From an uncultured Chloroflexia bacterium (GTDB lineage Bacteria > Chloroflexota > Limnocylindria > Limnocylindrales > CSP1-4), in the NCBI GenBank assembly GCA_963708015.1, contig OY970185.1, positions 2,613,486 through 2,677,485 of the forward strand: a stretch of 64,000 nt of DNA, written 5' to 3'. The position numbers and the translations under genes were made by a program. The notes under the pieces were generated by a model that saw only the letters and a list, made by a program, of their open reading frames with translations, ran no database searches and had not been told where the DNA came from. This document shows positions 986 to 42,804 of the stretch, one piece after another. Position 1 is the stretch's first letter; the number at the start of each line of letters is the position of its first letter.

Positions 986-2314
986 ATGAACACGTCCGAT
1001 TCGCATCGGCTCAGCCTGCTCATCGGGCTCAGCCTGCTGGTCGCTGCCTGCGCCGGTCCCGTCTCGCCGACGCCGGCCGGTTCCCCACCGGCCAGCTCGC
1101 CGGCCGGTGGTTCGAGCGCGCCCAGCGCGAGCCCGGCCGGCTCCGGGGCCGCCGGCTCACCGACGGCAAGCAGCGGGCCGCGCCAGCCCGGCCCGAGCCA
1201 GCCGGGCCCGAGCCAGCCGGCCGGCTCGAGCCCCAGCCCCACCCTGGCCTGTGCCAGCCGGACGCTCGACGGCCTGAACGAGGGCCAGCGAGTCGGCCAG
1301 CTGTTCCTGCTCGGCCTGGCCAATGACCACCTCGGGCCTGACGAGCAGGCGGCGATCGAGACCGACCACTTCGGCTCGGTCTGGTTCACGGCCAAGTCGG
1401 ACCTCGGGGTGGCCGGGATCCGGGCGATCGCCGACGCGGTGCAGGCTCTCGTGCCGAGCTCGGCCGCGGGGCCGGGCACCGCCGGAATCGGCTTCTTCGT
1501 CGGGGCGAACCAGGAAGGCGGCCTGGTCCAGGCCCTGAACGGAACTGGCTTCTCGACGATCCCAAGCGCGCTCGTCCAGGGCACCCGGTCGACCGCCACC
1601 CTCCGCAGCGAGGCGTCCTCCTGGGCGAGTCAGCTCAAGGCGGCCGGGATCAACCTGAACTTTGCCCCGGTGACCGATGTCGTGCCGGTCGCGACCGCGG
1701 CCCAGAACCAGCCGATCGGGGTGCTCGACCGGGAGTACGGCCACACCGCGGCCGTGGCCGGGCCGCACGCCGCGGCCTTCATGGAGGGCATGGCCCGGGC
1801 GGGGATCGTGACCGTTTCGAAGCATTTCCCGGGCCTCGGCCGGGTCGTCGGCAATACCGATTTCACGTCGAACGTCGTTGACCACGTGACGACTTCTTCC
1901 GATCCGAACCTCGGCTCGTTCAGGACGGTCATCGCGGCCGGCGTACCGGTCGTCATGGTCGCCCTGGCGACCTACCTGAAGATCGACCCGGACCACCTCG
2001 CCGCGTTCTCGCCGACCGTGATCGACCACCTCCTGCGGCAGCAGCTCGGCTTCAGCGGGGTCGTCATGTCGGACGACCTCGGGGCAACCGAAGCCGTGTC
2101 GGCGATCCCGCCGGCCACCCGCGGAGTCGAGTTCATCGCTGCCGGGGGCGACATGATCATCTCGAAGACGATCGGGCCGGCCGAGGAGATGGCCGGGGCA
2201 ATCACCGCCATGGCCAGCACGAACGCGGCCTTCCGGGCCCAGGTCAACGAGGCGGCCCTGCGGGTGCTCGAGCTGAAGGCGGCCGCCCACCTCCTGCCCT
2301 GCTCGGCCGGCTAG
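986..2314 (+). CDS. glycoside hydrolase family 3 (NagZ-like beta-N-acetylhexosaminidase) lipoprotein
   Basis: Signal peptide with lipobox 'LLVAACAG', a Pro/Ser-rich linker, and the GH3 motif 'KHFPGLGRV'. Confidence 0.8.
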   Translation: MNTSDSHRLSLLIGLSLLVAACAGPVSPTPAGSPPASSPAGGSSAPSASPAGSGAAGSPTASSGPRQPGPSQPGPSQPAGSSPSPTLACASRTLDGLNEGQRVGQLFLLGLANDHLGPDEQAAIETDHFGSVWFTAKSDLGVAGIRAIADAVQALVPSSAAGPGTAGIGFFVGANQEGGLVQALNGTGFSTIPSALVQGTRSTATLRSEASSWASQLKAAGINLNFAPVTDVVPVATAAQNQPIGVLDREYGHTAAVAGPHAAAFMEGMARAGIVTVSKHFPGLGRVVGNTDFTSNVVDHVTTSSDPNLGSFRTVIAAGVPVVMVALATYLKIDPDHLAAFSPTVIDHLLRQQLGFSGVVMSDDLGATEAVSAIPPATRGVEFIAAGGDMIISKTIGPAEEMAGAITAMASTNAAFRAQVNEAALRVLELKAAAHLLPCSAG

Positions 2315-2975: not shown

Positions 2976-3400
2976 CTCGCCGCCGGGCTGGCCCCCGCCG
3001 GCACGTTGCAGGTCGCGAGGCTCTGGTTCGGGCTGCCGAAGACATTCACGAACGTCACCCCGATCGGCTGCCCGGTCGCCGGGTCGGTCGTCGCCCCGGC
3101 CACCGACGAACAGATCGTCGCCGCGGTCGCCTGGCTGACCGCCGTGTTGGGCAGGCTGGTGAAGACGAGGACACTCGTTCCGACGACCTGGACATTCGGG
3201 CCGACGCTCGACTGGAGGAGGCTCGGATACCAGACCTCGTTGGCGAACTGGGTCTGGACGTTCTTGATCATGATCGTGGTGTTCGCTGCGTCGGCGCTGG
3301 ACGAGCTGCTCCCGCTGTTTCCGCGCGTCGCCACGAATGCGATCAGGGCCACGACGACCACGACGACCACGATGATCGGGAGAGCCCGTCGTTGCTTCAT
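2972..3400 (-). CDS. membrane-anchored hypothetical protein
   Basis: Starts at 'MKQRRALPIIVVVVVVVALIAF' (internal ATG of ORF 2972..3631). That ATG overlaps the Fur-gene stop as ATGA at 3397-3400. Confidence 0.55.
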   Translation of the reverse strand: MKQRRALPIIVVVVVVVALIAFVATRGNSGSSSSSADAANTTIMIKNVQTQFANEVWYPSLLQSSVGPNVQVVGTSVLVFTSLPNTAVSQATAATICSSVAGATTDPATGQPIGVTFVNVFGSPNQSLATCNVPAGASPAAS

Positions 3401-3933
3401 CTCACATCCTTCTGGTCGGCCTGGACCGCGCGGGCAGCCTGAGTCCGCTCGCTGAGGATCATACCCTCGGCGGGGCGAGCCTCGGACCTCGATCCTCGGC
3501 AGCCCGAACAGGTCCCGGCCACCGTCAGGTGGCCGATGTCGACGCTGAACCCGGTCGACCGCTCGAGCTCCGCGACGAACCGCCGGGCGTCCTCGGGGGC
3601 GAGCTCCGTCGAGGCTCCGCAGCGCACGCATTGGAGGTGCGCGTGCTCATGTTCTGGCAGGACGTGGAACTCCTCGCGCCCGTCCGGCCCGTGACTGTGG
3701 CTGAGGTAGCCGAGCTCCTCCAGCACGTCGAGCGTGCGATAGACGGTCGAAGGCGTCGTCTCCGCGTCACGCTCCCGGCAGCGGTCGACGATCTCGCTCC
3801 CGGTGACATGGCCGCTGGTGGCGGCCAGGACGTCGAGGATCAGCCGCCGCTGGGGCGTCCAGCGCAGGCCGCGCGAACGCAGCTCGTCGCGAACCGCCAC
3901 CCACGGGGCATCGGCCGGGCGCTCGAGCTCCAC
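3397..3933 (-). CDS. Fur-family metalloregulator (possibly nickel/cobalt-responsive, given its neighbours)
   Basis: Winged-helix N-terminus, His-rich 'HSHGPDG...HEHAHLQCVRCG' and C-terminal 'CSGC' (CxxC...CxxC zinc site). Confidence 0.85.
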   Translation of the reverse strand: MELERPADAPWVAVRDELRSRGLRWTPQRRLILDVLAATSGHVTGSEIVDRCRERDAETTPSTVYRTLDVLEELGYLSHSHGPDGREEFHVLPEHEHAHLQCVRCGASTELAPEDARRFVAELERSTGFSVDIGHLTVAGTCSGCRGSRSEARPAEGMILSERTQAARAVQADQKDVR

Positions 3934-3949
3934 GGTCCGGCCGGCCGGC

Positions 3950-5089
3950 TCAGGCGGGGGTCGAGGGCGGACTGGCCGGGCCGTGATCCAGCTTGTCGTA
4001 GCCCTTCCAGCGGTAGAGCAGGGTCGAGCCGACCCAGCTCAGGACGAAGATGAGCACGATGACCACGCCCAGCACCCCGAAGTCGATGCCGTTGATGAAA
4101 TCCCAGAAGCCGCCTTCGAGACCGAGCTCCCTGGAGATGATGCTGAGCACTTCGATCCCGCCGATGACGAATGCGATCACGACCGAGATGAAGGTGATTG
4201 TCAGGTTGTAGTACAGCTTGCGAACCGGCTTGAGGAAGGCCCAGCCGTAGGCCCCCAGCATCATGATCTGGTCGCTGCTGTCCATCGTCATCATCCCGGC
4301 CGCGAAAAGGGCCGGCAGAATCAGGATGCAGACGATCGGGATCTCCTGGCCGCCGGCGGCGACGGCCAGGCCCAGGAGGGCGACCTCGCTGGCCGTGTCG
4401 AAGCCGAGCCCGAACAGGAAGCCGACCGGGTACATGTGCCAGCTCTTCCGGACGAGCCGGAGCATCGGCCGGAAGATCCGGGCCAGGAGGCCCCGGTTCT
4501 CGAGCAGCTCCTCGAGCGACTCGTTGGAATATTGGCCGCCCTGGGAAACCTCCCGGAAGAGGTGCCAGATGTTGACCAGGACGACCAGGTTGATCGCCCC
4601 GATCAGGATCAGGAAGGTTGCCGAGACCGTCGTGCCAACCAGCCCGCCGATCGCCTGGAGGGCGGGGATGTCCGCCGCCACCGAGGCCGAGAAGGCGAGC
4701 ACGACCGACAGGAGAACCACGATCGTCGAGTGGCCCAGCGAGAAGAAGAAGCCAATGGCCACCGGTCGCTGGCCGTCCTGCATGAGCTTGCGGGTGGTGT
4801 TGTCGATCGCCGCGATGTGGTCGGCGTCGAAGGCGTGGCGGAGCCCCAGGGTGTAGGCCAGGAAGCCGGCGGCGACGAACCCGGGGTAGGCCGAGCCGAG
4901 GGCCAGGAGCAGCCCGAAGGCCACGATCGTGAACAGGGCCAGGAACGCGTAGAGCAGGACGATCCGGGTCCGGGTCGGGCTGGGCGTCCGGACCGCCTGC
5001 CACACAGTCGTCATCGAGGACTCCTCACCGGCCTGGGCATCGTGCCGCTGATGATCGTCGTTATCGCGGCATGTTGCAATACCAAGCAT
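3950..5089 (-). CDS. NiCoT (HoxN/HupN/NixA family) nickel/cobalt permease
   Basis: Signature 'HAFDADHIAAIDNTTRK', then 'FFFSLGHSTIVV' and 'LGFDTASEVALL'; multi-TM. ATG at 5014 ('MTTVWQ') is a plausible alternative start. Confidence 0.9.
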   Translation of the reverse strand: MLGIATCRDNDDHQRHDAQAGEESSMTTVWQAVRTPSPTRTRIVLLYAFLALFTIVAFGLLLALGSAYPGFVAAGFLAYTLGLRHAFDADHIAAIDNTTRKLMQDGQRPVAIGFFFSLGHSTIVVLLSVVLAFSASVAADIPALQAIGGLVGTTVSATFLILIGAINLVVLVNIWHLFREVSQGGQYSNESLEELLENRGLLARIFRPMLRLVRKSWHMYPVGFLFGLGFDTASEVALLGLAVAAGGQEIPIVCILILPALFAAGMMTMDSSDQIMMLGAYGWAFLKPVRKLYYNLTITFISVVIAFVIGGIEVLSIISRELGLEGGFWDFINGIDFGVLGVVIVLIFVLSWVGSTLLYRWKGYDKLDHGPASPPSTPA

Positions 5090-36193: not shown

Positions 36194-37204
36194 TCAGCTC
36201 CGGCGGCCCACGAACAGGCTGGCTCCCGATGGCAGGTCGACGATCGTCGGCTGGCCGATCCCGGCCGCCTCGAACAGGTCGGCGAATCCGGCATGGTCGA
36301 GCAGACGGGTGCCCTGGAAGAGCTGGTCGAGCTGGATCCCCCACATGATTGCCTCATGCACCGAGCGGGCCCCGTCGTCCTGCTCCGGCAGGGCCCAGTC
36401 GAGGACGACCAGCCGGCCGGCCGGCCGGACGCAGGCCCAGGCCGCCCGGAGCGAGGCGACCGGATCCTGCAGGTCGTGGATGGCGTCCTGGAAGTAGACC
36501 AGGTCGAACTGGCCCGGCCAGGGCAGGTCCTCAGCGGCCCGGCCCTCGATCGTGATCCGGCCGGCCAGGCCGGCCTCCTGGATGTGGCGGGTGGCTCGGG
36601 CGAGCGAATCCGGCTCGAGCTCGACCCCGACCAGGTTCGTCTCGGGAAACGTCGTGGCGACTGCGATCAGCCAGCGCCCGCCGCCGCAATGGACATCGAG
36701 GACGTGGCCGCCCGCAGCCAGGTCAGCGGCCAGGTCGGGCAGCGCGGCCAGGCCCTCCTGGAAGAACACGGCGATGTCCTGGGCGGTCAGGACCTCGACC
36801 GCCCGGTGGTAGCGGGCCGGCCGGATGTCCATCGTCCGACCGGTCCGGGCGTACTCCACGAGCCCGTCGTGATCAAGGCTGTTGACGACGGATGAGACGA
36901 ACTGGCCGCCGAGGTACTCGGGCCGCTGGTCATCGAGCAGGACGGCCGCGACCTGCTCGTCGATCGTCGCCCGGTCGCCGGCCAGGTCGACCAGGTCGAC
37001 CGCGTGGGCCAGGCGCAGCCAGGCCCTGACGAACTCGGATTGGCAGCCGGCCTGGGTGGCCAGCCCGGCCGCGCTGATCCCCGACGGAGCGGCGGCCCGG
37101 ATCCGCCGAAACAGGCCGAGCTCCAGGCCGAGGTAGACCGCCCAGGTCTGGTAGAACCCGGCCAGGCCGGCGGCCAGCTCGTCGAAGCGATCGCCGATCG
37201 ACAT
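36194..37204 (-). CDS. class I SAM-dependent methyltransferase (O-methyltransferase-like with N-terminal dimerisation/wHTH domain)
   Basis: Start 'MSIGDRFDEL' (internal ATG of ORF 36194..37747). Motif I 'VLDVHCGGGRWL'. Confidence 0.8.
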   Translation of the reverse strand: MSIGDRFDELAAGLAGFYQTWAVYLGLELGLFRRIRAAAPSGISAAGLATQAGCQSEFVRAWLRLAHAVDLVDLAGDRATIDEQVAAVLLDDQRPEYLGGQFVSSVVNSLDHDGLVEYARTGRTMDIRPARYHRAVEVLTAQDIAVFFQEGLAALPDLAADLAAGGHVLDVHCGGGRWLIAVATTFPETNLVGVELEPDSLARATRHIQEAGLAGRITIEGRAAEDLPWPGQFDLVYFQDAIHDLQDPVASLRAAWACVRPAGRLVVLDWALPEQDDGARSVHEAIMWGIQLDQLFQGTRLLDHAGFADLFEAAGIGQPTIVDLPSGASLFVGRRS

Positions 37205-37394
37205 GGTCCGGATTGTCGCACGGGCGAATCCGTGTCCGACCCGCGAATCGGTTGCCGATTCCGATCCAAAATACTGGCTAGTGCCAAGTAGCCAATGGCG
37301 GTCGGACCGGCTACGATGGGCACGACCGCTGGCAGATGACCACCGACCGGATGGCTCAAGGCCGGCTGCCGGCGCTCGATGGAAGGCTCGAACG

Positions 37395-39464
37395 ATGACC
37401 CGCCTCGCACTCCCGATCGGCCTGGGCCTCGCCGCCCGCGATGACATCGGCGACGTCGTCGGCTGGGCCCGTGACGTGCGCGACGCCGGCCTCGATTCGA
37501 TCTGGATCCACGACTCGTACTTCGAACGTGACGCGATCAGCTTCGCGACTGCGGTCGCCCGGGCGTTCGAGCAGGATGGTGACGACGAGGAGGGCGGCTT
37601 CCGGGTCGCCCTCGGCGCGGTCAACCCGAACACCCGCCATCCGGTCGTCCTGGCCATGACCGGTTCAGCCCTCGACGAGATCCTGCCCGGCCGGATCGTC
37701 ATAGCCCTCGGGACCGGCCTGCCCCTCCGGCTCAAGCAGATGGGCATCCCCTACGAGCCGGCGGCCGCACTCGAGGGCGTCTCGACGGCGATCGACCAGA
37801 TCCGCCTGCTGTGGCGCGGCGAGCGGCTGCCGTCGGCCACGCCGGGCCTGCCTCCGATCCAGCCGATGTTCGCCCCGACCCATCGGATCCCGATCCACAT
37901 CGCGGCCTACCGCCACGAGTTCGTGACCCTGGCCGGCCAGAAGGCCGACGGCTACCTCGCCCGGCCGGCCGAATCGATCCCGTCGCTCCGGGGGATCCTC
38001 GAGCGGCTTCGGCTGGCCGCGACCGAGGCGGGCCGCGACCCGGCCGAGATCGAGACCGAGGGCTATCTCCTGTCGCTCGTGGACTCGACCCGACGCGAGG
38101 CGCTCAACCGGGCGAAGCGGGAGCCCTTCGTGATCTACATGATGTCGGTCCTGGGCGACGTGTCGCTCAAGCGGGCGGGCTTCGAGCCGGAGCTGCGCGA
38201 CCGGATCGCGGCCGCCTGGCGGGCGGAGGACTATCACGGCGCCGGGGCCCAGATCCCGGACGAGCTGCTCGACGCGTTCATGCTGTGCGGGACGCGCGAG
38301 GACGTTGCCGCCCGGGCGATGGCCTTCCACGTCGAGGCCGGGCTCGGCCTGCCGCTCCTGCAGCCCGTGCTCCAGGAGGACCACCAGATCGCCGAGCTGA
38401 CCGCGGCTGCGGCGCTCTACGCCGGCCTGCCCGATCCCTCCCGGGCGCGCGCCTCGCAGGCGGCCGCGGCCGGGCGTTCCGCCGGCGCGGACGCGCACGA
38501 CGTCGGCGGGCCGGGAGACCTGGCCGACGACCGGACGCTCGGCCTGGCCGATCGCGCCGGGCGACGCCTGGGCGCCCTGTGGGAGATCCTCCGGCCGTTC
38601 GCCTACACGGCGTCGGTCATCCCGGTCATGACCGGGGCCGCCCTGGCGGTGGTCGACGAGCAGTTCAGCTGGGCCCCGTTCGTCGCCGCCCTGCTGGGCG
38701 GGGTCCTGCTCCACTCGGGCACGAACATCGTCAACGAGATCTACGACGTCCGAAAGGGCATCGACACGATCATCTCGCCGCGGGCCAGCCACGCCCTGCT
38801 CAAGGGCCGCCTGACCGAGCGCCAGGCCTTCGCCGCGGCCTTCGCCGCGTTTGGCCTGGCGACCCTGGTCGGGCTATACTTGGTCGCCTTGCGCGGGCCG
38901 GCCATCGTGGGGCTGGGCCTGCTCGGCCTGCTGGGCGGCTACTTCTATACGGCCCCGCCGTTCGAGTACAAGTACCACGCCCTGGGCGTGCCCCTCGTGT
39001 TCGTCCTGATGGGCCCCCTGATGGTCGTTGGGACCTACTTCGCGATCACCGGCACCTGGAGCACGACCGCCCTGGCCGCCTCGATCCCGGTCGGCCTGCT
39101 CGTCGCGGCGATCCTCGACGGCAACGAGTGGCGCGACATCAGCGAGGACAGCCGGGCCGGCATCTCGACTCTGTCGGCCAGGCTCGGCCGGGAACGGGCC
39201 CACTACTTCTACGTGGCCCTCGTCCTGGGTGCCTACATCGCCCTGGGCCTGACCGTCGCGGTCGGTTGGCTGCCCCCCCAGAGCCTGCTCGCGATCGTGT
39301 CGCTGCCGTTCCTGGCCCAGGTGATCCGGGCGGCGGAGCTGGGCTCGACCGGCCAGCAGCGGGCGATCGCGATGCTCGACGTGCAGACGGCCCGGCTCCA
39401 CCGGACCTTCGGGGCGCTCCTCGTCGTCGGCCTCCTGCTCTCGAACGTGCACCTCGGTGGCTGA
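37395..39464 (+). CDS. fusion protein: LLM-class (F420/flavin-dependent luciferase-like) oxidoreductase plus UbiA/MenA-family prenyltransferase
   Basis: Start 'MTRLALPIGL' with GGAAGG SD. Complete LLM domain of about 345 aa, a linker of about 50 aa, then a UbiA domain with 'NEIYDVRKGID' and 'NEWRDISEDSRAGISTL'. No stop codon between the domains. Confidence 0.8.
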   Translation: MTRLALPIGLGLAARDDIGDVVGWARDVRDAGLDSIWIHDSYFERDAISFATAVARAFEQDGDDEEGGFRVALGAVNPNTRHPVVLAMTGSALDEILPGRIVIALGTGLPLRLKQMGIPYEPAAALEGVSTAIDQIRLLWRGERLPSATPGLPPIQPMFAPTHRIPIHIAAYRHEFVTLAGQKADGYLARPAESIPSLRGILERLRLAATEAGRDPAEIETEGYLLSLVDSTRREALNRAKREPFVIYMMSVLGDVSLKRAGFEPELRDRIAAAWRAEDYHGAGAQIPDELLDAFMLCGTREDVAARAMAFHVEAGLGLPLLQPVLQEDHQIAELTAAAALYAGLPDPSRARASQAAAAGRSAGADAHDVGGPGDLADDRTLGLADRAGRRLGALWEILRPFAYTASVIPVMTGAALAVVDEQFSWAPFVAALLGGVLLHSGTNIVNEIYDVRKGIDTIISPRASHALLKGRLTERQAFAAAFAAFGLATLVGLYLVALRGPAIVGLGLLGLLGGYFYTAPPFEYKYHALGVPLVFVLMGPLMVVGTYFAITGTWSTTALAASIPVGLLVAAILDGNEWRDISEDSRAGISTLSARLGRERAHYFYVALVLGAYIALGLTVAVGWLPPQSLLAIVSLPFLAQVIRAAELGSTGQQRAIAMLDVQTARLHRTFGALLVVGLLLSNVHLGG

Positions 39465-40206
39465 CCACGGGCCAGGCGATGCCGGGACCGCGGCCCCGGC
39501 CGAAGGCGGCCCCGGGGCGATCGCCCTGCTCGTCGGCCTGACCGGCGCCGTAGCCGCCTTCACCGCCACGTTCAACGGCCCGCGCGACCGGTTCTGGAGC
39601 CGGATGAGCTACACCGGGATCGGGCTCGGCTCGTGGGCCCTCCTCCGCTCGAAGAAGGCTCGCCGGCTCGGCCTGCGCTGGTGGCACGTGCCGGTCGGCC
39701 TGGCCTCGGCCAACGTCCTGTACCTGACCTTCCGGGTCGGCGACGCATTCGCCCGCCGGTTCGTACCTGGCGGCGACGCTCAGATCCGCCAGATCTACGA
39801 GCTGCGGACGAGCCGCCCGCGCGGCGAGATCGCGGCCCGACTGGCCCTCCTGATCGGTCCGGCTGAGGAGATCTTCTGGCGCGGCCTCGTCCAGGCCGCC
39901 CTGATGGACCGAGTCGGGCGCTGGCGCGGGGCGGCGCTCGCCGCCCTGGCCTACGGCGGCGTCCACGTCGTCACGGGCAACTTCACCCTGATGGGTGCCG
40001 CGGGCGTGGCCGGCGCCCATTGGTGCGCCCTGTACGCGGCGGGGGTCCCGTTGGGCGCCCTGATCGTGAGCCATTCGAGCTGGGACATCTGGATCTTCCT
40101 CGTCCAGCCGACCGGAGAAGTCGAGGCGATCGACGGCACCGGGCGGACGATCCGGCTGGCCGGATTCGGCCCGGATGCAACGGGCCAGGGATCGCTCGTG
40201 TTATGA
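39457..40206 (+). CDS. CPBP-family intramembrane glutamic protease (CAAX protease/Abi-like)
   Basis: 'PAEEIFWRG' (EExxxR), 'AYGGVH' (FxxxH-type) and 'SHSSWD'. Overlaps the fusion gene by 8 nt. Confidence 0.75.
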   Translation: MADHGPGDAGTAAPAEGGPGAIALLVGLTGAVAAFTATFNGPRDRFWSRMSYTGIGLGSWALLRSKKARRLGLRWWHVPVGLASANVLYLTFRVGDAFARRFVPGGDAQIRQIYELRTSRPRGEIAARLALLIGPAEEIFWRGLVQAALMDRVGRWRGAALAALAYGGVHVVTGNFTLMGAAGVAGAHWCALYAAGVPLGALIVSHSSWDIWIFLVQPTGEVEAIDGTGRTIRLAGFGPDATGQGSLVL

Positions 40207-40213
40207 ACGGGCG

Positions 40214-40840
40214 ATGGATCAAGACGAGCTCCCGGGGCGTCTCGCAGCCGACCTCGACGCGGCCTTTCCGGGCTTCCTCGAGCTGGAGCAGGGCCGGGTC
40301 TACTCGATCGCCCTGCGCCTGACCGGCCAGCCGGCCGAGGCCGAGGATCTCGCCCAGGACACGTTCATCCGGGCCTACCGGGCGCTCAGCAGCTGGGAGC
40401 CGGCCCGGATCCGGGAGCTGGCGGTACGGCCCTGGCTGGCCAGCATCGTGGTCAACCTCGGGCGCAACCGGGCCCGGGCCCGGGCGGCGCGGCCGGCCAC
40501 CGTGAGCCTGGTCGATGAGCTGGCTCACCCGCGGATCGCCCCGGCCGAGACGCCCCACGGCCGGCTCGAGCGACGGGCCAGCACGGAGGAGTGGGCGGCT
40601 CGCCTGCTCGCCCTGCCGGAGCGCTACCGGGGCCCGGTCGTCCTGCGCCACGTCGACGGACTGTCCTACGACGAGATCGGGCTCGCCCTCGATCGCCCGG
40701 CCGGGACGGTCAAGGCCCAGGTCCACCGGGGCATGGGGATCCTGCGGACGATGCTCGCTGCCGAGCAATCCAGCCTCCTCGGCCAGGCCCCAGGCCAACC
40801 GTCTCGAACCGCAGCCCGCCCACTGGAGGTGGCCCGATGA
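40214..40840 (+). CDS. ECF-type RNA polymerase sigma-70 factor
   Basis: Region 2 'AEDLAQDTFIRAYRAL' and region 4 'LSYDEIGLALDRPAGTVKAQVHRG'. Confidence 0.85.
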   Translation: MDQDELPGRLAADLDAAFPGFLELEQGRVYSIALRLTGQPAEAEDLAQDTFIRAYRALSSWEPARIRELAVRPWLASIVVNLGRNRARARAARPATVSLVDELAHPRIAPAETPHGRLERRASTEEWAARLLALPERYRGPVVLRHVDGLSYDEIGLALDRPAGTVKAQVHRGMGILRTMLAAEQSSLLGQAPGQPSRTAARPLEVAR

Positions 40841-41658
40841 GCCCCACGTCAAGCCCGATCAATCTCGCTGACCCCGCCGACAGCCCGGCGATCGAGCTGG
40901 CCCTCGGCGGCCTGCTCGTGGAGGCTCCGGCCGGGCTGGCCGATCGCACCCTCGTGGCGGTCGGTTTGGCCGACGCCTACGCCCCGATCGAGACCGTGAT
41001 CGGCCGAATCTGGGTCGCCTTCAACGGGCTGGGCGTGGACGCGCTCGAGACGGCCGATTCGGCCGAGGCGTTCGCAGAGCAACTTCGGGCAACCCACGGC
41101 CGGCCGGCCCATCGCCTGGCCGAGCTGCCACCCCGCCTGAGCGCGGCGATTCAGCGCCGGCTCGACGGCGATCGACGGGTCGCGATCCCGCTCGACCTGC
41201 GGGGCCACTCGAGCTTCGAGCGGGACGTCTGGATGAAGGCCCTCGAGATCCCCCGGGGGGAGGTCCGGCCGTACGGCTGGATCGCTGCCGAGATCGGCCG
41301 GCCGAAGGCGGTCCGGGCGGTCGGGACAGCCCTCGGGCATAACCCGGTACCGCTCATCGTGCCCTGCCATCGGGTCGTCCGGACCGACGGGACGATCGGC
41401 CAGTACTCGCTCGGCGGGCCGGCCAACAAGCGGACCCTGCTTGCCTCGGAAGGCCTTGATCCCGAGGCGATGGAGGCGCTGGCCCGGGCCGGCACCCGCT
41501 ACATCGGCTCGGACACGACCCGGATCTACTGCCTGCCGACGTGCCATAACGCGAAGCGGATCAGCCTCGCCCACCGGGTTTCCTTCCACTCGGCCGAGGA
41601 CGGCGCACGAGCCGGCTATCGGGCCTGCCTGTCCTGCCGGCCGGCCATCGCGGCCTGA
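40837..41658 (+). CDS. O6-alkylguanine-DNA alkyltransferase (Ogt/MGMT) fused to an Ada-type Zn(Cys)4 domain
   Basis: ATGA overlap with the sigma gene. 'HNPVPLIVPCHRVV' active site. C-terminal 'YCLPTC-X27-CLSCRP' matches the Ada Cys-X3-Cys...Cys-X2-Cys pattern. Confidence 0.85.
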   Translation: MSPTSSPINLADPADSPAIELALGGLLVEAPAGLADRTLVAVGLADAYAPIETVIGRIWVAFNGLGVDALETADSAEAFAEQLRATHGRPAHRLAELPPRLSAAIQRRLDGDRRVAIPLDLRGHSSFERDVWMKALEIPRGEVRPYGWIAAEIGRPKAVRAVGTALGHNPVPLIVPCHRVVRTDGTIGQYSLGGPANKRTLLASEGLDPEAMEALARAGTRYIGSDTTRIYCLPTCHNAKRISLAHRVSFHSAEDGARAGYRACLSCRPAIAA

Positions 41659-41667
41659 CTTCGGTGG

Positions 41668-42804
41668 GTGTATTCTCGCGACTTGGACCAACCGACTGAG
41701 CCAAACCTGACGCCGGCCGACAGGCGCGCCCGGAGCAAGGCCACGCCGCTGGCGATCCTGGCCGGGATGCTCGTGCTCTACTTCGTCTGGGGCTCGACCT
41801 ACATCGCGATTCGGCTGGCCGTCGAGACGATCCCGCCGTTCCTCATGGCCGGGTTTCGATTCCTCGTCGCCGGGCTGATCCTGCTGGGCTGGGAATGGCT
41901 CGCCGTCCGGCGGATCCGGGCCGATCCGAACGTCGGCCCAACCGACCGCCCCGGCCGCCCGACAGGCCGCCAGCTGCGAGACTCGGCGATCGTCGGGGGC
42001 CTCCTCCTCGGCGGCGGGATGGGCCTCGTCGCACTCGGCGAGCGGACGGTCCCGGCCGGGATCACTGCCTTCCTGATCGCGATGCTGCCGGTCTGGGTGG
42101 CCGTCTTCGGGCGAGCTTTCTTCGGCGAGCGGCTGCCCCGGGCCGTCCTCGCCGGGGTCATCGTGGGCATCGTCGGGGTGGCAATCCTGGTCGGGCCAGT
42201 CGGGACGTCCGGGGGCGGGCTGGCCTTCGACCCGCTCGGGCTGGCCGTCCTGATCGCCTCGCCGATGTGCTGGGCGACCGGTTCGCTCTACTCGAGCCAG
42301 CGGGCGGTCCTGCCGCCCCGACCGCTGACCGCGACCGGCTTCCAGATGCTCTTCGGGAGCGCGATCCTGCTGGTGGCGGCCGTCATGACCGGCGAGCTGC
42401 GCGGCTTTGACCCGAGCGCGATCATGGCCCGTTCGGCAGCCGGGCTGCTGTACCTGGTCGTGTTCGGCAGCTTGCTCGCCTTCACCACGTTCGTGTGGCT
42501 CCTCCGAGTCGCCCCGCTGCCGAAGGTCGCGACCTACGCCTACATCAACCCGATCGTGGCGATCGTCCTGGCCGGCCTCGTCCTCGGCGAGCCGATCGAG
42601 CCGCGAACGGCGATCGCGGGCGCGGTCATCGTCGCCGGAGTGGCCCTGATCGTGACGGCCCGGGGCCGCACCCAGGCGGTCGAATCGGTCATGCCGACGC
42701 CGCCGGGCGGGGCGGCCCAGGCCGGCCCGGCCGGGCTGCTGGAGACCCCGGCTGGAGCCGCGGCCGCCCCTCTCGAGCGAGGTCCCGAGCTCAGCCCTCG
42801 CTGA
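41668..42804 (+). CDS. EamA/DMT-superfamily transporter
   Basis: Ten hydrophobic segments; 'YFVWGSTYIAIRLAV' and a duplicated EamA half. Confidence 0.8.
   Translation: MYSRDLDQPTEPNLTPADRRARSKATPLAILAGMLVLYFVWGSTYIAIRLAVETIPPFLMAGFRFLVAGLILLGWEWLAVRRIRADPNVGPTDRPGRPTGRQLRDSAIVGGLLLGGGMGLVALGERTVPAGITAFLIAMLPVWVAVFGRAFFGERLPRAVLAGVIVGIVGVAILVGPVGTSGGGLAFDPLGLAVLIASPMCWATGSLYSSQRAVLPPRPLTATGFQMLFGSAILLVAAVMTGELRGFDPSAIMARSAAGLLYLVVFGSLLAFTTFVWLLRVAPLPKVATYAYINPIVAIVLAGLVLGEPIEPRTAIAGAVIVAGVALIVTARGRTQAVESVMPTPPGGAAQAGPAGLLETPAGAAAAPLERGPELSPR

Follow-up and report, generated by a model that had tools for sequence, protein, structure and literature searches.

A DNA-alkylation repair protein coupled to an ECF sigma factor gene in at least six bacterial phyla and its probable role as a damage sensor

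Introduction

An ECF sigma factor gene is usually expected to be accompanied by the gene of its anti-sigma factor, and the locus examined here raises the question of why this position is occupied instead by a DNA-alkylation repair protein. The locus lies in a stretch of 64,000 nt (hereafter the window) of contig OY970185.1 from an uncultured Chloroflexia bacterium (GCA_963708015.1). A preliminary description, made from the sequence alone, proposed that this protein, which carries both alkyl-acceptor sites of Ada but no DNA-binding domain, could be an alkylation-sensing partner of the sigma factor, either an anti-sigma factor or a co-factor, and stated that no characterised example was known. 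We confirmed the sequence features on which this proposal was based, and then examined by comparative analysis whether the proposal itself is supported.

Sequence features of the two genes

All features given below with a range of coordinates are on the forward (+) strand. The sigma factor ORF (40214..40840) encodes 208 aa, with Pfam Sigma70_r2 (PF04542) at aa 25-91 (E 7e-15; about 40286-40486) and Sigma70_r4_2 (PF08281) at aa 128-174 (E 7e-12; about 40595-40747). These domains and the score for the generic ECF model TIGR02937 (68.4 against a cut-off of 42.9) assign it to the ECF (group 4) sigma factors, although it passes no named equivalog model. Its closest solved relatives are mycobacterial SigE (E 4e-22) and Bacillus subtilis SigW (E 5e-19). 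The stop codon overlaps the start of a 273-aa ORF (40837..41658) by ATGA at 40837-40840, which implies translational coupling, and a GGAGG Shine-Dalgarno sequence for the downstream gene is found inside the sigma ORF at 40825-40829, 7 nt before its ATG.

The 273-aa protein consists of an N-terminal extension, an Ogt N-domain, an MGMT catalytic domain and an Ada-type zinc module. The catalytic domain (aa 127-206; 41215..41454) matches PF01035 (E 1e-30), and the protein scores 96.6 for TIGR00589 ogt against a cut-off of 46.4. The acceptor Cys177 (codon 41365-41367) sits in IVPCHRVV; P176, C177, H178, R179, N169, R160 and E205 are invariant, and Y146 is nearly invariant (at least 90%), in 23 relatives down to 34% identity. 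A Pfam scan of the N-terminal 126 aa alone found no family, and PF02870 is not detected, but the Ogt N-domain is nevertheless present, because the profile match to the PDB runs over Mycobacterium tuberculosis Ogt residues 4-153 and the AF2 model matches 1SFE with TM 0.76.

The zinc module (aa 219-269; 41491..41643) matches PF02805 Ada_Zn_binding with 38 bits against a cut-off of 23, over profile positions 15-64 of 65. The spacing is C-x3-C-x27-C-x2-C, as in the preliminary description, with Cys232 at 41530-41532, Cys236 at 41542-41544, Cys264 at 41626-41628 and Cys267 at 41635-41637, and all four are invariant in the 23 diverse relatives. The profile match to the PDB covers N-Ada residues 31-79 in 1WPK, 1ADN, 1ZGW and 1U8B (E of about 6e-6), and Foldseek matches 1U8B and 1WPK with probability 0.98-1.0. 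The protein has exactly five cysteines (177, 232, 236, 264 and 267) and no H-x3-C-x2-C motif; it has no TM segment, the maximum 19-residue hydropathy being 1.33, and no HTH family was hit at E up to 1. Its match to the full-length Ada model NF011964 is only 111.7 bits against a cut-off of 345.

Conservation of the gene pair and its promoter

A single ATGA overlap is common, as are ECF sigma genes in high-GC genomes, but conservation of the overlap in homologous pairs across phyla is not. An ECF sigma gene lies directly upstream in 74 of 75 informative species-representative loci: Chloroflexota 30/30 (counting locus L051), Actinomycetota 32/32, Acidobacteriota 7/7, Dormibacterota 3/3, Entotheonella 1/1 and WPS-2 1/1. 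The one locus without a sigma gene also lacks the N-terminal extension. The 4-nt overlap (ATGA, GTGA or TTGA) is found in 60 of 74 pairs analysed (61 of 75 with L051), and pairwise identities of the sigma factor and the MGMT protein correlate (r = 0.84). In four further look-ups that started from sigma homologues, the MGMT-AdaZn gene was always at +1.

When all neighbouring ORFs were clustered to search for another conserved partner, only lineage-restricted synteny appeared, and no other conserved neighbour could serve as the anti-sigma factor. An EamA-family transporter gene (41668..42804) starts 9 nt after the MGMT stop, with no terminator or sigma-70 promoter between them, and is downstream in 24 loci, which are the closest (Limnocylindria-type) relatives; it is possibly a lineage-specific third gene of the operon. 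The upstream Rce1-like ORF was considered as a PrsW-like site-1 protease for this system, but this was rejected because it is conserved only in the seven closest loci and the promoter lies inside its 3' end. The downstream acyl-CoA dehydrogenase gene, considered as a possible AidB, has a standard ACAD domain set on the opposite strand and no promoter motif.

A bipartite motif of the ECF promoter type, TGCAAC-N16-G(T/G)GTT, was found upstream of the sigma gene in 63 of 70 loci at 10 or more of 12 matches, and in 0 coding-region controls. In the window (40176..40203) the -35 element TGCAAC is at 40176..40181, inside the 3' end of the Rce1-like ORF, and the -10 element GTGTTA is at 40198..40203, ending 10 nt before the sigma ATG. 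The spacer is 16 nt in 59 of 63 loci, and the distance from the -10 end to the start codon is 6-11 nt in most loci, although the apparent invariance is inflated because instances were picked as the best match per locus. An AAC-containing -35 element is typical of ECF promoters, as in the Streptomyces sigma-E promoter table. This position predicts a leaderless or nearly leaderless mRNA, although the start site, like promoter recognition by this sigma factor, is inferred; it also makes an alternative upstream ATG at 40175 unlikely to be the sigma start. The motif is the only PWM hit in the 64-kb window, where the simpler pattern has 1 match against 0.07 expected, and no second copy that would define a local regulon was found. 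In three actinobacterial loci (L071, L072 and L082), however, the same motif also precedes Oxygenase-NA genes (PF09859, E 4e-80), and in L082 it precedes a canonical Ogt gene.

Homology of the N-terminal extension to an anti-sigma domain

The preliminary description noted the lack of an HxxxCxxC anti-sigma motif, but this lack does not mean that there is no anti-sigma element. In 11 of 150 cluster representatives and three genome loci, a zf-HC2 domain is followed by the same MGMT and AdaZn body downstream of an ECF sigma gene; relatives such as P0274 (a protein) and L061 and L079 (loci) carry this canonical zinc anti-sigma domain. Their N-termini match RsiW (5WUQ_C, E 2e-7; residues 1-71, including VEAPADFTANVMAKL), RslA, DdvA and ChrR. 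The 46-aa extension of the window protein lacks helices 1-2 and the zinc site of the class I domain and gives no zf-HC2 hit, but hhalign of the short-extension profile against the zinc-finger-type N-termini gives probability 88% and E 3e-6. The homologous part, residues 17-43 (PAIELALGGLLVEAPAGLADRTLVAVG; 40885..40965), runs from the end of helix 3 through the linker to helix 4, and we regard it as a two-helix remnant and the proposed sigma-binding element. Across 30 diverse extensions P31 is invariant, and L39, G43 and D46 are at least 90% conserved. The short-extension profile alone finds no anti-sigma structure in the PDB, giving only a chance hit. At equal divergence of the MGMT core, the sigma clade tracks the class of N-terminal extension, and SigW, one of the closest solved relatives of the window sigma factor, is the partner of RsiW.

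About 32 of 150 representatives lacked a detectable Ada-Zn motif despite an N-terminal extension. Some of these are clean 191-214-aa proteins, but many are fragments or frameshifted ORFs; the zinc site therefore appears not to be required for the coupling.

Interpretation

On the basis of these results, the proposal of an alkylation-sensing partner is supported, and we consider it somewhat more likely than not that the two genes form an autoregulated sigma/anti-sigma module sensing DNA alkylation, although binding and sensing are inferred and not shown. In this model the unalkylated protein holds the sigma factor through the N-terminal extension, with helix 4 on sigma2 regions 2.1/2.2, as published for class I anti-sigma domains (PMC7406223), and thereby keeps the positive feedback loop off. 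Irreversible alkyl transfer from O6-alkylguanine to Cys177, and/or from methylphosphotriesters to Cys232, would change or destabilise the protein and free the sigma factor. The sigma factor would then transcribe its own operon, replacing the spent suicide enzyme one-for-one, and in some lineages further alkylation-repair genes (Ogt, Oxygenase-NA), until fresh protein that is no longer consumed recaptures it.

The possibility that the enzyme is merely a member of the regulon, with sigma activity set elsewhere (for example by an unlinked anti-sigma factor, by proteolysis or by transcription from another promoter) and the extension being a structural add-on to the Ogt N-domain, is less likely but should be kept in mind. 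The extension helices have pLDDT 70-85 in the monomer model (pTM 0.72) and may therefore pack on the Ogt N-domain rather than being free, the window protein has no zinc anti-sigma motif, and a 2022 review lists ECF122, a group with MGMT neighbours, among groups without cognate anti-sigma factors (PMC8999054). An AF2 model of a sigma-MGMT ORF (P0392), which may be a natural fusion or an indel artefact, showed no confident docking (pTM 0.39; pLDDT of about 57 for the helix-4 equivalent), but without PAE it neither shows nor excludes docking. This reading, however, does not explain why relatives place a complete RsiW-like domain in front of the same enzyme, why the extension is homologous to the tail of that domain and co-varies in class with the sigma clade, or why the +1 position and the overlap are kept across six phyla while all other neighbours change; moreover, an autoregulated ECF promoter with no inhibitor would lock the loop on.

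It is also unlikely, though not excluded, that the protein is an Ada-like positive co-factor, which when alkylated, especially at the Cys232 zinc site, gains affinity for DNA or for sigma4 and helps the ECF holoenzyme at the promoter. The zinc module is a close match to N-Ada including the acceptor position, methylation of that site switches Escherichia coli Ada into an activator, and the GCAA within the -35 hexamer may resemble the Ada box B, which is a lead only. Against this view, the protein has no HTH, the element that gives Ada its sequence specificity, the homology of the extension is to an inhibitory domain, and the clean 191-214-aa relatives, considered here without their genomic context, keep the extension and the MGMT domain but lack the zinc module. 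Chance adjacency or an annotation artefact is already refuted by the conservation of the pair, the overlap and the promoter and by the correlated identities.

A more far-reaching possibility, which we put forward only tentatively, is that the suicide alkyltransferase is a stoichiometric, consumable anti-sigma factor: each repair event would destroy one inhibitor molecule, so that the load of O6-alkylguanine or methylphosphotriester lesions is converted directly into free ECF sigma, and the 1:1 translationally coupled, leaderless operon would then reset the system. If so, this would be the adaptive response to alkylation in Chloroflexota, many Actinomycetota, Acidobacteriota and Dormibacterota, built on sigma/anti-sigma logic instead of the Ada activator, which explains this response in only part of the bacterial world. 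It would add DNA-lesion transfer as a new input class to ECF signalling and, if the window sigma factor belongs to ECF122, assign a mechanism to an ECF group currently labelled as unknown in this respect. The series of full zinc anti-sigma domain, two-helix remnant and no extension also shows how anti-sigma domains can be pared down.

Comparison with known systems

The association itself is not unrecorded, because the review lists 6-O-methylguanine DNA methyltransferases as the conserved genomic neighbours of group ECF122 (Casas-Pastor et al. 2021 classification, as summarised in PMC8999054), with an actinobacterial example and an unknown regulatory mechanism; the window and the related loci share this neighbourhood. 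Literature searches for a characterised MGMT anti-sigma factor found nothing beyond this listing, and the main text and preprint of the classification paper do not mention it.

E. coli Ada likewise has both irreversible alkyl-acceptor modules, the gene here is apparently autoregulated, and other alkylation-repair genes carry the same promoter in some genomes. The domain order is reversed, however, with MGMT first and the zinc module last, there is no AraC-type HTH, and the transcriptional output is proposed to go through a separate ECF sigma factor, by sequestration and release rather than by DNA-bound activation. In CnrY-type (class II) anti-sigma factors the sigma-binding element is reduced to about two helices, equivalent to RsiW alpha3'-alpha4' (PMC5358783), the same part with which the window extension aligns, but CnrY is membrane-anchored and controlled by a periplasmic partner. 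With the class I zinc anti-sigma factors (RsiW-SigW, RsrA-SigR, RslA-SigL, ChrR-RpoE) the present protein shares the +1 position with translational coupling to an ECF sigma gene, the segment equivalent to the helix 3 tail and helix 4, and, as in RsrA, a soluble and cytoplasmic nature. It differs from them in lacking helices 1-2 and the H-x3-C-x2-C zinc site, and in that the proposed sensor is a suicide DNA-repair enzyme, not a redox-sensitive zinc site or a membrane or periplasmic domain.

Sequence features of the sigma and alkyltransferase ORFs

We first examined the two ORFs in detail, and all features listed in the preliminary description were confirmed. The sigma ORF (40214..40840, forward strand, 208 aa) and the following ORF (40837..41658, forward strand, 273 aa) share the ATGA at 40837-40840, and a GGAGG at 40825-40829 precedes the second start codon. 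The sigma ORF has Sigma70_r2 and Sigma70_r4_2 hits and passes only the generic ECF model TIGR02937. The 273-aa ORF has PF01035 at aa 127-206 (E 1e-30) and PF02805 Ada_Zn_binding at aa 219-269 (38 bits against a cut-off of 23). It has five cysteines, namely the MGMT acceptor Cys177 in IVPCHRVV and Cys232, Cys236, Cys264 and Cys267, and neither an H-x3-C-x2-C motif, a hydrophobic segment nor an HTH was found. A profile of the family matches M. tuberculosis Ogt (E 6e-28), E. coli C-Ada (E 2e-25) and four N-Ada structures over Ada residues 31-79. An AF2 model (pLDDT 82, pTM 0.72) superposes on 1SFE with TM 0.76, and its C-terminal module matches 1U8B and 1WPK.

Distribution and genomic context

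The PF01035 plus PF02805 architecture of about 270 aa is abundant: 6770 cluster representatives were found at E < 1e-10, mostly named Chloroflexota or Candidatus Limnocylindrales. A scan of one genome per species returned 80 loci, which come from Chloroflexota, Actinomycetota (Acidimicrobiia, Nonomuraea, Actinomadura, Streptosporangium, Spirillospora, Pseudonocardiales and Mycobacteriales), Acidobacteriota, Dormibacterota, Entotheonella, WPS-2 and Methylomirabilis. Of the 75 loci with upstream DNA, 73 have a detectable homologue of the window sigma directly upstream on the same strand. One further locus, L051 of Ktedonobacteria (3144..4700), has a much more divergent ECF sigma that also overlaps by 4 nt, giving 74 of 75. 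The single exception, L066 of Candidatus Methylomirabilis (1557..2300), is also the only MGMT-AdaZn gene found to encode a protein with no N-terminal extension. The start/stop overlap is exactly 4 nt in 60 of 74 pairs, and pairwise identities of the two proteins correlate with r = 0.84. We also started from sigma homologues in four cases, and the MGMT-AdaZn gene was found at +1 in all four.

In contrast to the sigma gene, the other neighbours are restricted to close relatives, and clustering of all neighbouring ORFs found no other conserved partner. A luciferase-like monooxygenase fused to a UbiA prenyltransferase (37203..39464, forward strand) overlaps by 8 nt an Rce1-like CPBP intramembrane protease ORF (39457..40206, forward strand), and these genes are found upstream of the sigma gene only in the seven closest loci. 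On the downstream side, an EamA-family transporter gene (41668..42804, forward strand) starts 9 nt after the MGMT-AdaZn stop with no terminator between them. This gene is found in 24 loci, all among the closest (Limnocylindria-type) relatives, and thus the operon may have a lineage-specific third gene.

In several records (cluster representatives P0391, P0392, P0393, P0277, P0332 and P0341), the sigma and MGMT-AdaZn reading frames are joined in one ORF. In L083, the locus of P0392 (4001..5392), a TAA in another frame overlaps the internal ATG (cgtcTAATGgcg) and the internal Shine-Dalgarno is kept. The joined ORFs could reflect either an assembly indel or a true fusion.

Promoter and candidate regulon

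An unbiased count of bipartite words upstream of sigma gave GCAAC...GTGT in 38 of 70 loci and in none of the coding controls. When mismatches were allowed, TGCAAC-N16-G(T/G)GTT(C/G/A) was present in 63 of 70 loci; the spacer is 16 nt in 59 loci, and the -10 element ends 6-11 nt before the sigma start codon in most loci. In the window, the elements are at 40176-40181 and 40198-40203, inside the last 31 nt of the Rce1-like ORF, and they are the only hit in 64 kb. This supports 40214 rather than 40175 as the sigma start, and predicts, by inference from sequence alone, a leaderless or nearly leaderless mRNA. The AAC-containing -35 element and the spacing are typical of ECF promoters, as in the Streptomyces sigma-E promoter table. 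Loci of the zinc-finger type, explained below, carry a one-base variant, CGAAC-N16-GTGTT.

In three actinobacterial loci, belonging to Mycobacteriales and Pseudonocardiales genomes, the same motif (TGCAAC-N16-GTGTTC) occurs a second time. It directly precedes Oxygenase-NA genes (PF09859, an AlkB-like DNA demethylase family, E 4e-80) next to the sigma/MGMT-AdaZn pair in L071 (2612..4795), L072 (3267..6109) and L082 (2729..5540). In L082 it also lies in front of a canonical Ogt gene (PF02870 plus PF01035), and both motif copies in this locus are immediately followed by the start codon, i.e., in a leaderless arrangement. L072 has a canonical Ogt gene too, directly after the MGMT-AdaZn gene, but without its own motif. 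These occurrences tie the regulon to alkylation repair.

The N-terminal extension

The window protein has 46 residues in front of the Ogt fold, and these residues are conserved within the family. An exhaustive search of cluster representatives gave three classes, though many entries are fragments or frameshifted ORFs: approximately 37 with a short extension, MGMT and AdaZn (typically 250-275 aa); approximately 32 with a short extension and MGMT but no detectable AdaZn (191-214 aa for the clean members); and approximately 11 with H-x3-C-x2-C, extension, MGMT and AdaZn (about 300 aa). A further type of extension, which is long, has no zinc motif and contains a 'DPxF...LR' segment, was found in L051 and in representatives P0273, P0280 and P0301. 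Concerning the zinc-finger class, Pfam calls zf-HC2 in representative P0274 and in loci L061 and L079, and a profile of these N-termini matches the solved anti-sigma factors RsiW (5WUQ_C, E 1.9e-7, over RsiW residues 1-71), RslA, DdvA and ChrR.

Profile-profile comparison places the short extension (window aa 17-43) on the last 27 columns of that domain, with probability 88% and E 3e-6. The region corresponds to the RsiW segment ...VEAPADFTANVMAKL, and the window has VEAPAGLADRTLVAV. According to published structures and coevolution analysis, the fourth helix of class I anti-sigma domains binds sigma2 regions 2.1/2.2, which form the core-RNAP contact surface (PMC7406223), and CnrY inhibits its sigma with only the equivalents of RsiW alpha3'-alpha4' (PMC5358783). 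We also compared sigma factors at equal divergence of the MGMT core (43-52% identity): sigma alignment scores are 250-420 in loci with the short extension and 131-192 in the five loci with a zinc-finger or long extension. The sigma clade therefore tracks the extension class, as expected if the extension is the sigma-specific element. Among solved structures, the window sigma is closest to SigE and to SigW, the partner of RsiW.

Possible mechanism

The two genes form a real and strongly conserved module, which is shared across phyla with its own ECF-type promoter and translational coupling, keeps two intact alkyl-acceptor sites and an anti-sigma-derived N-terminal element, and is linked to other alkylation-repair genes. 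On this basis, we infer that the unalkylated protein sequesters the sigma factor, that alkyl transfer to Cys177 and/or Cys232 inactivates or destabilises it, and that the freed sigma factor re-expresses the operon. The preliminary description, in which the protein was proposed to be an alkylation-sensing partner of the ECF sigma, is supported by the computational evidence, and is sharpened by the finding that the extension is an anti-sigma remnant.

We regard this mechanism as only somewhat more likely than not, because binding of the two proteins is inferred rather than demonstrated. AF2 prediction on the fused ORF P0392 gave pTM 0.39 and low confidence on the helix-4 equivalent, without PAE, and in the monomer model the extension is fairly well ordered and so may pack on the enzyme. 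The possibility that the protein is purely a regulon member with no regulatory role remains but is considered unlikely, and an Ada-like positive co-factor is still less likely, while chance adjacency is highly improbable.

Relation to known systems

The sigma-MGMT neighbourhood itself is already recorded for group ECF122, which a 2022 review lists under 'unknown mechanism'. In the literature searched, we found no paper describing the Ada zinc fusion, the relatives that carry an anti-sigma domain, the homology of the extension, the promoter or the wider phyletic spread. If the inferred mechanism is correct, what differs from known sigma/anti-sigma pairs is the use of a suicide DNA-repair enzyme as the sensor. 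The protein is not an Ada regulator, because it has no HTH and its domain order is reversed, and it is also not a canonical zinc anti-sigma factor, because it lacks helices 1-2 and the zinc site; it combines parts of both.
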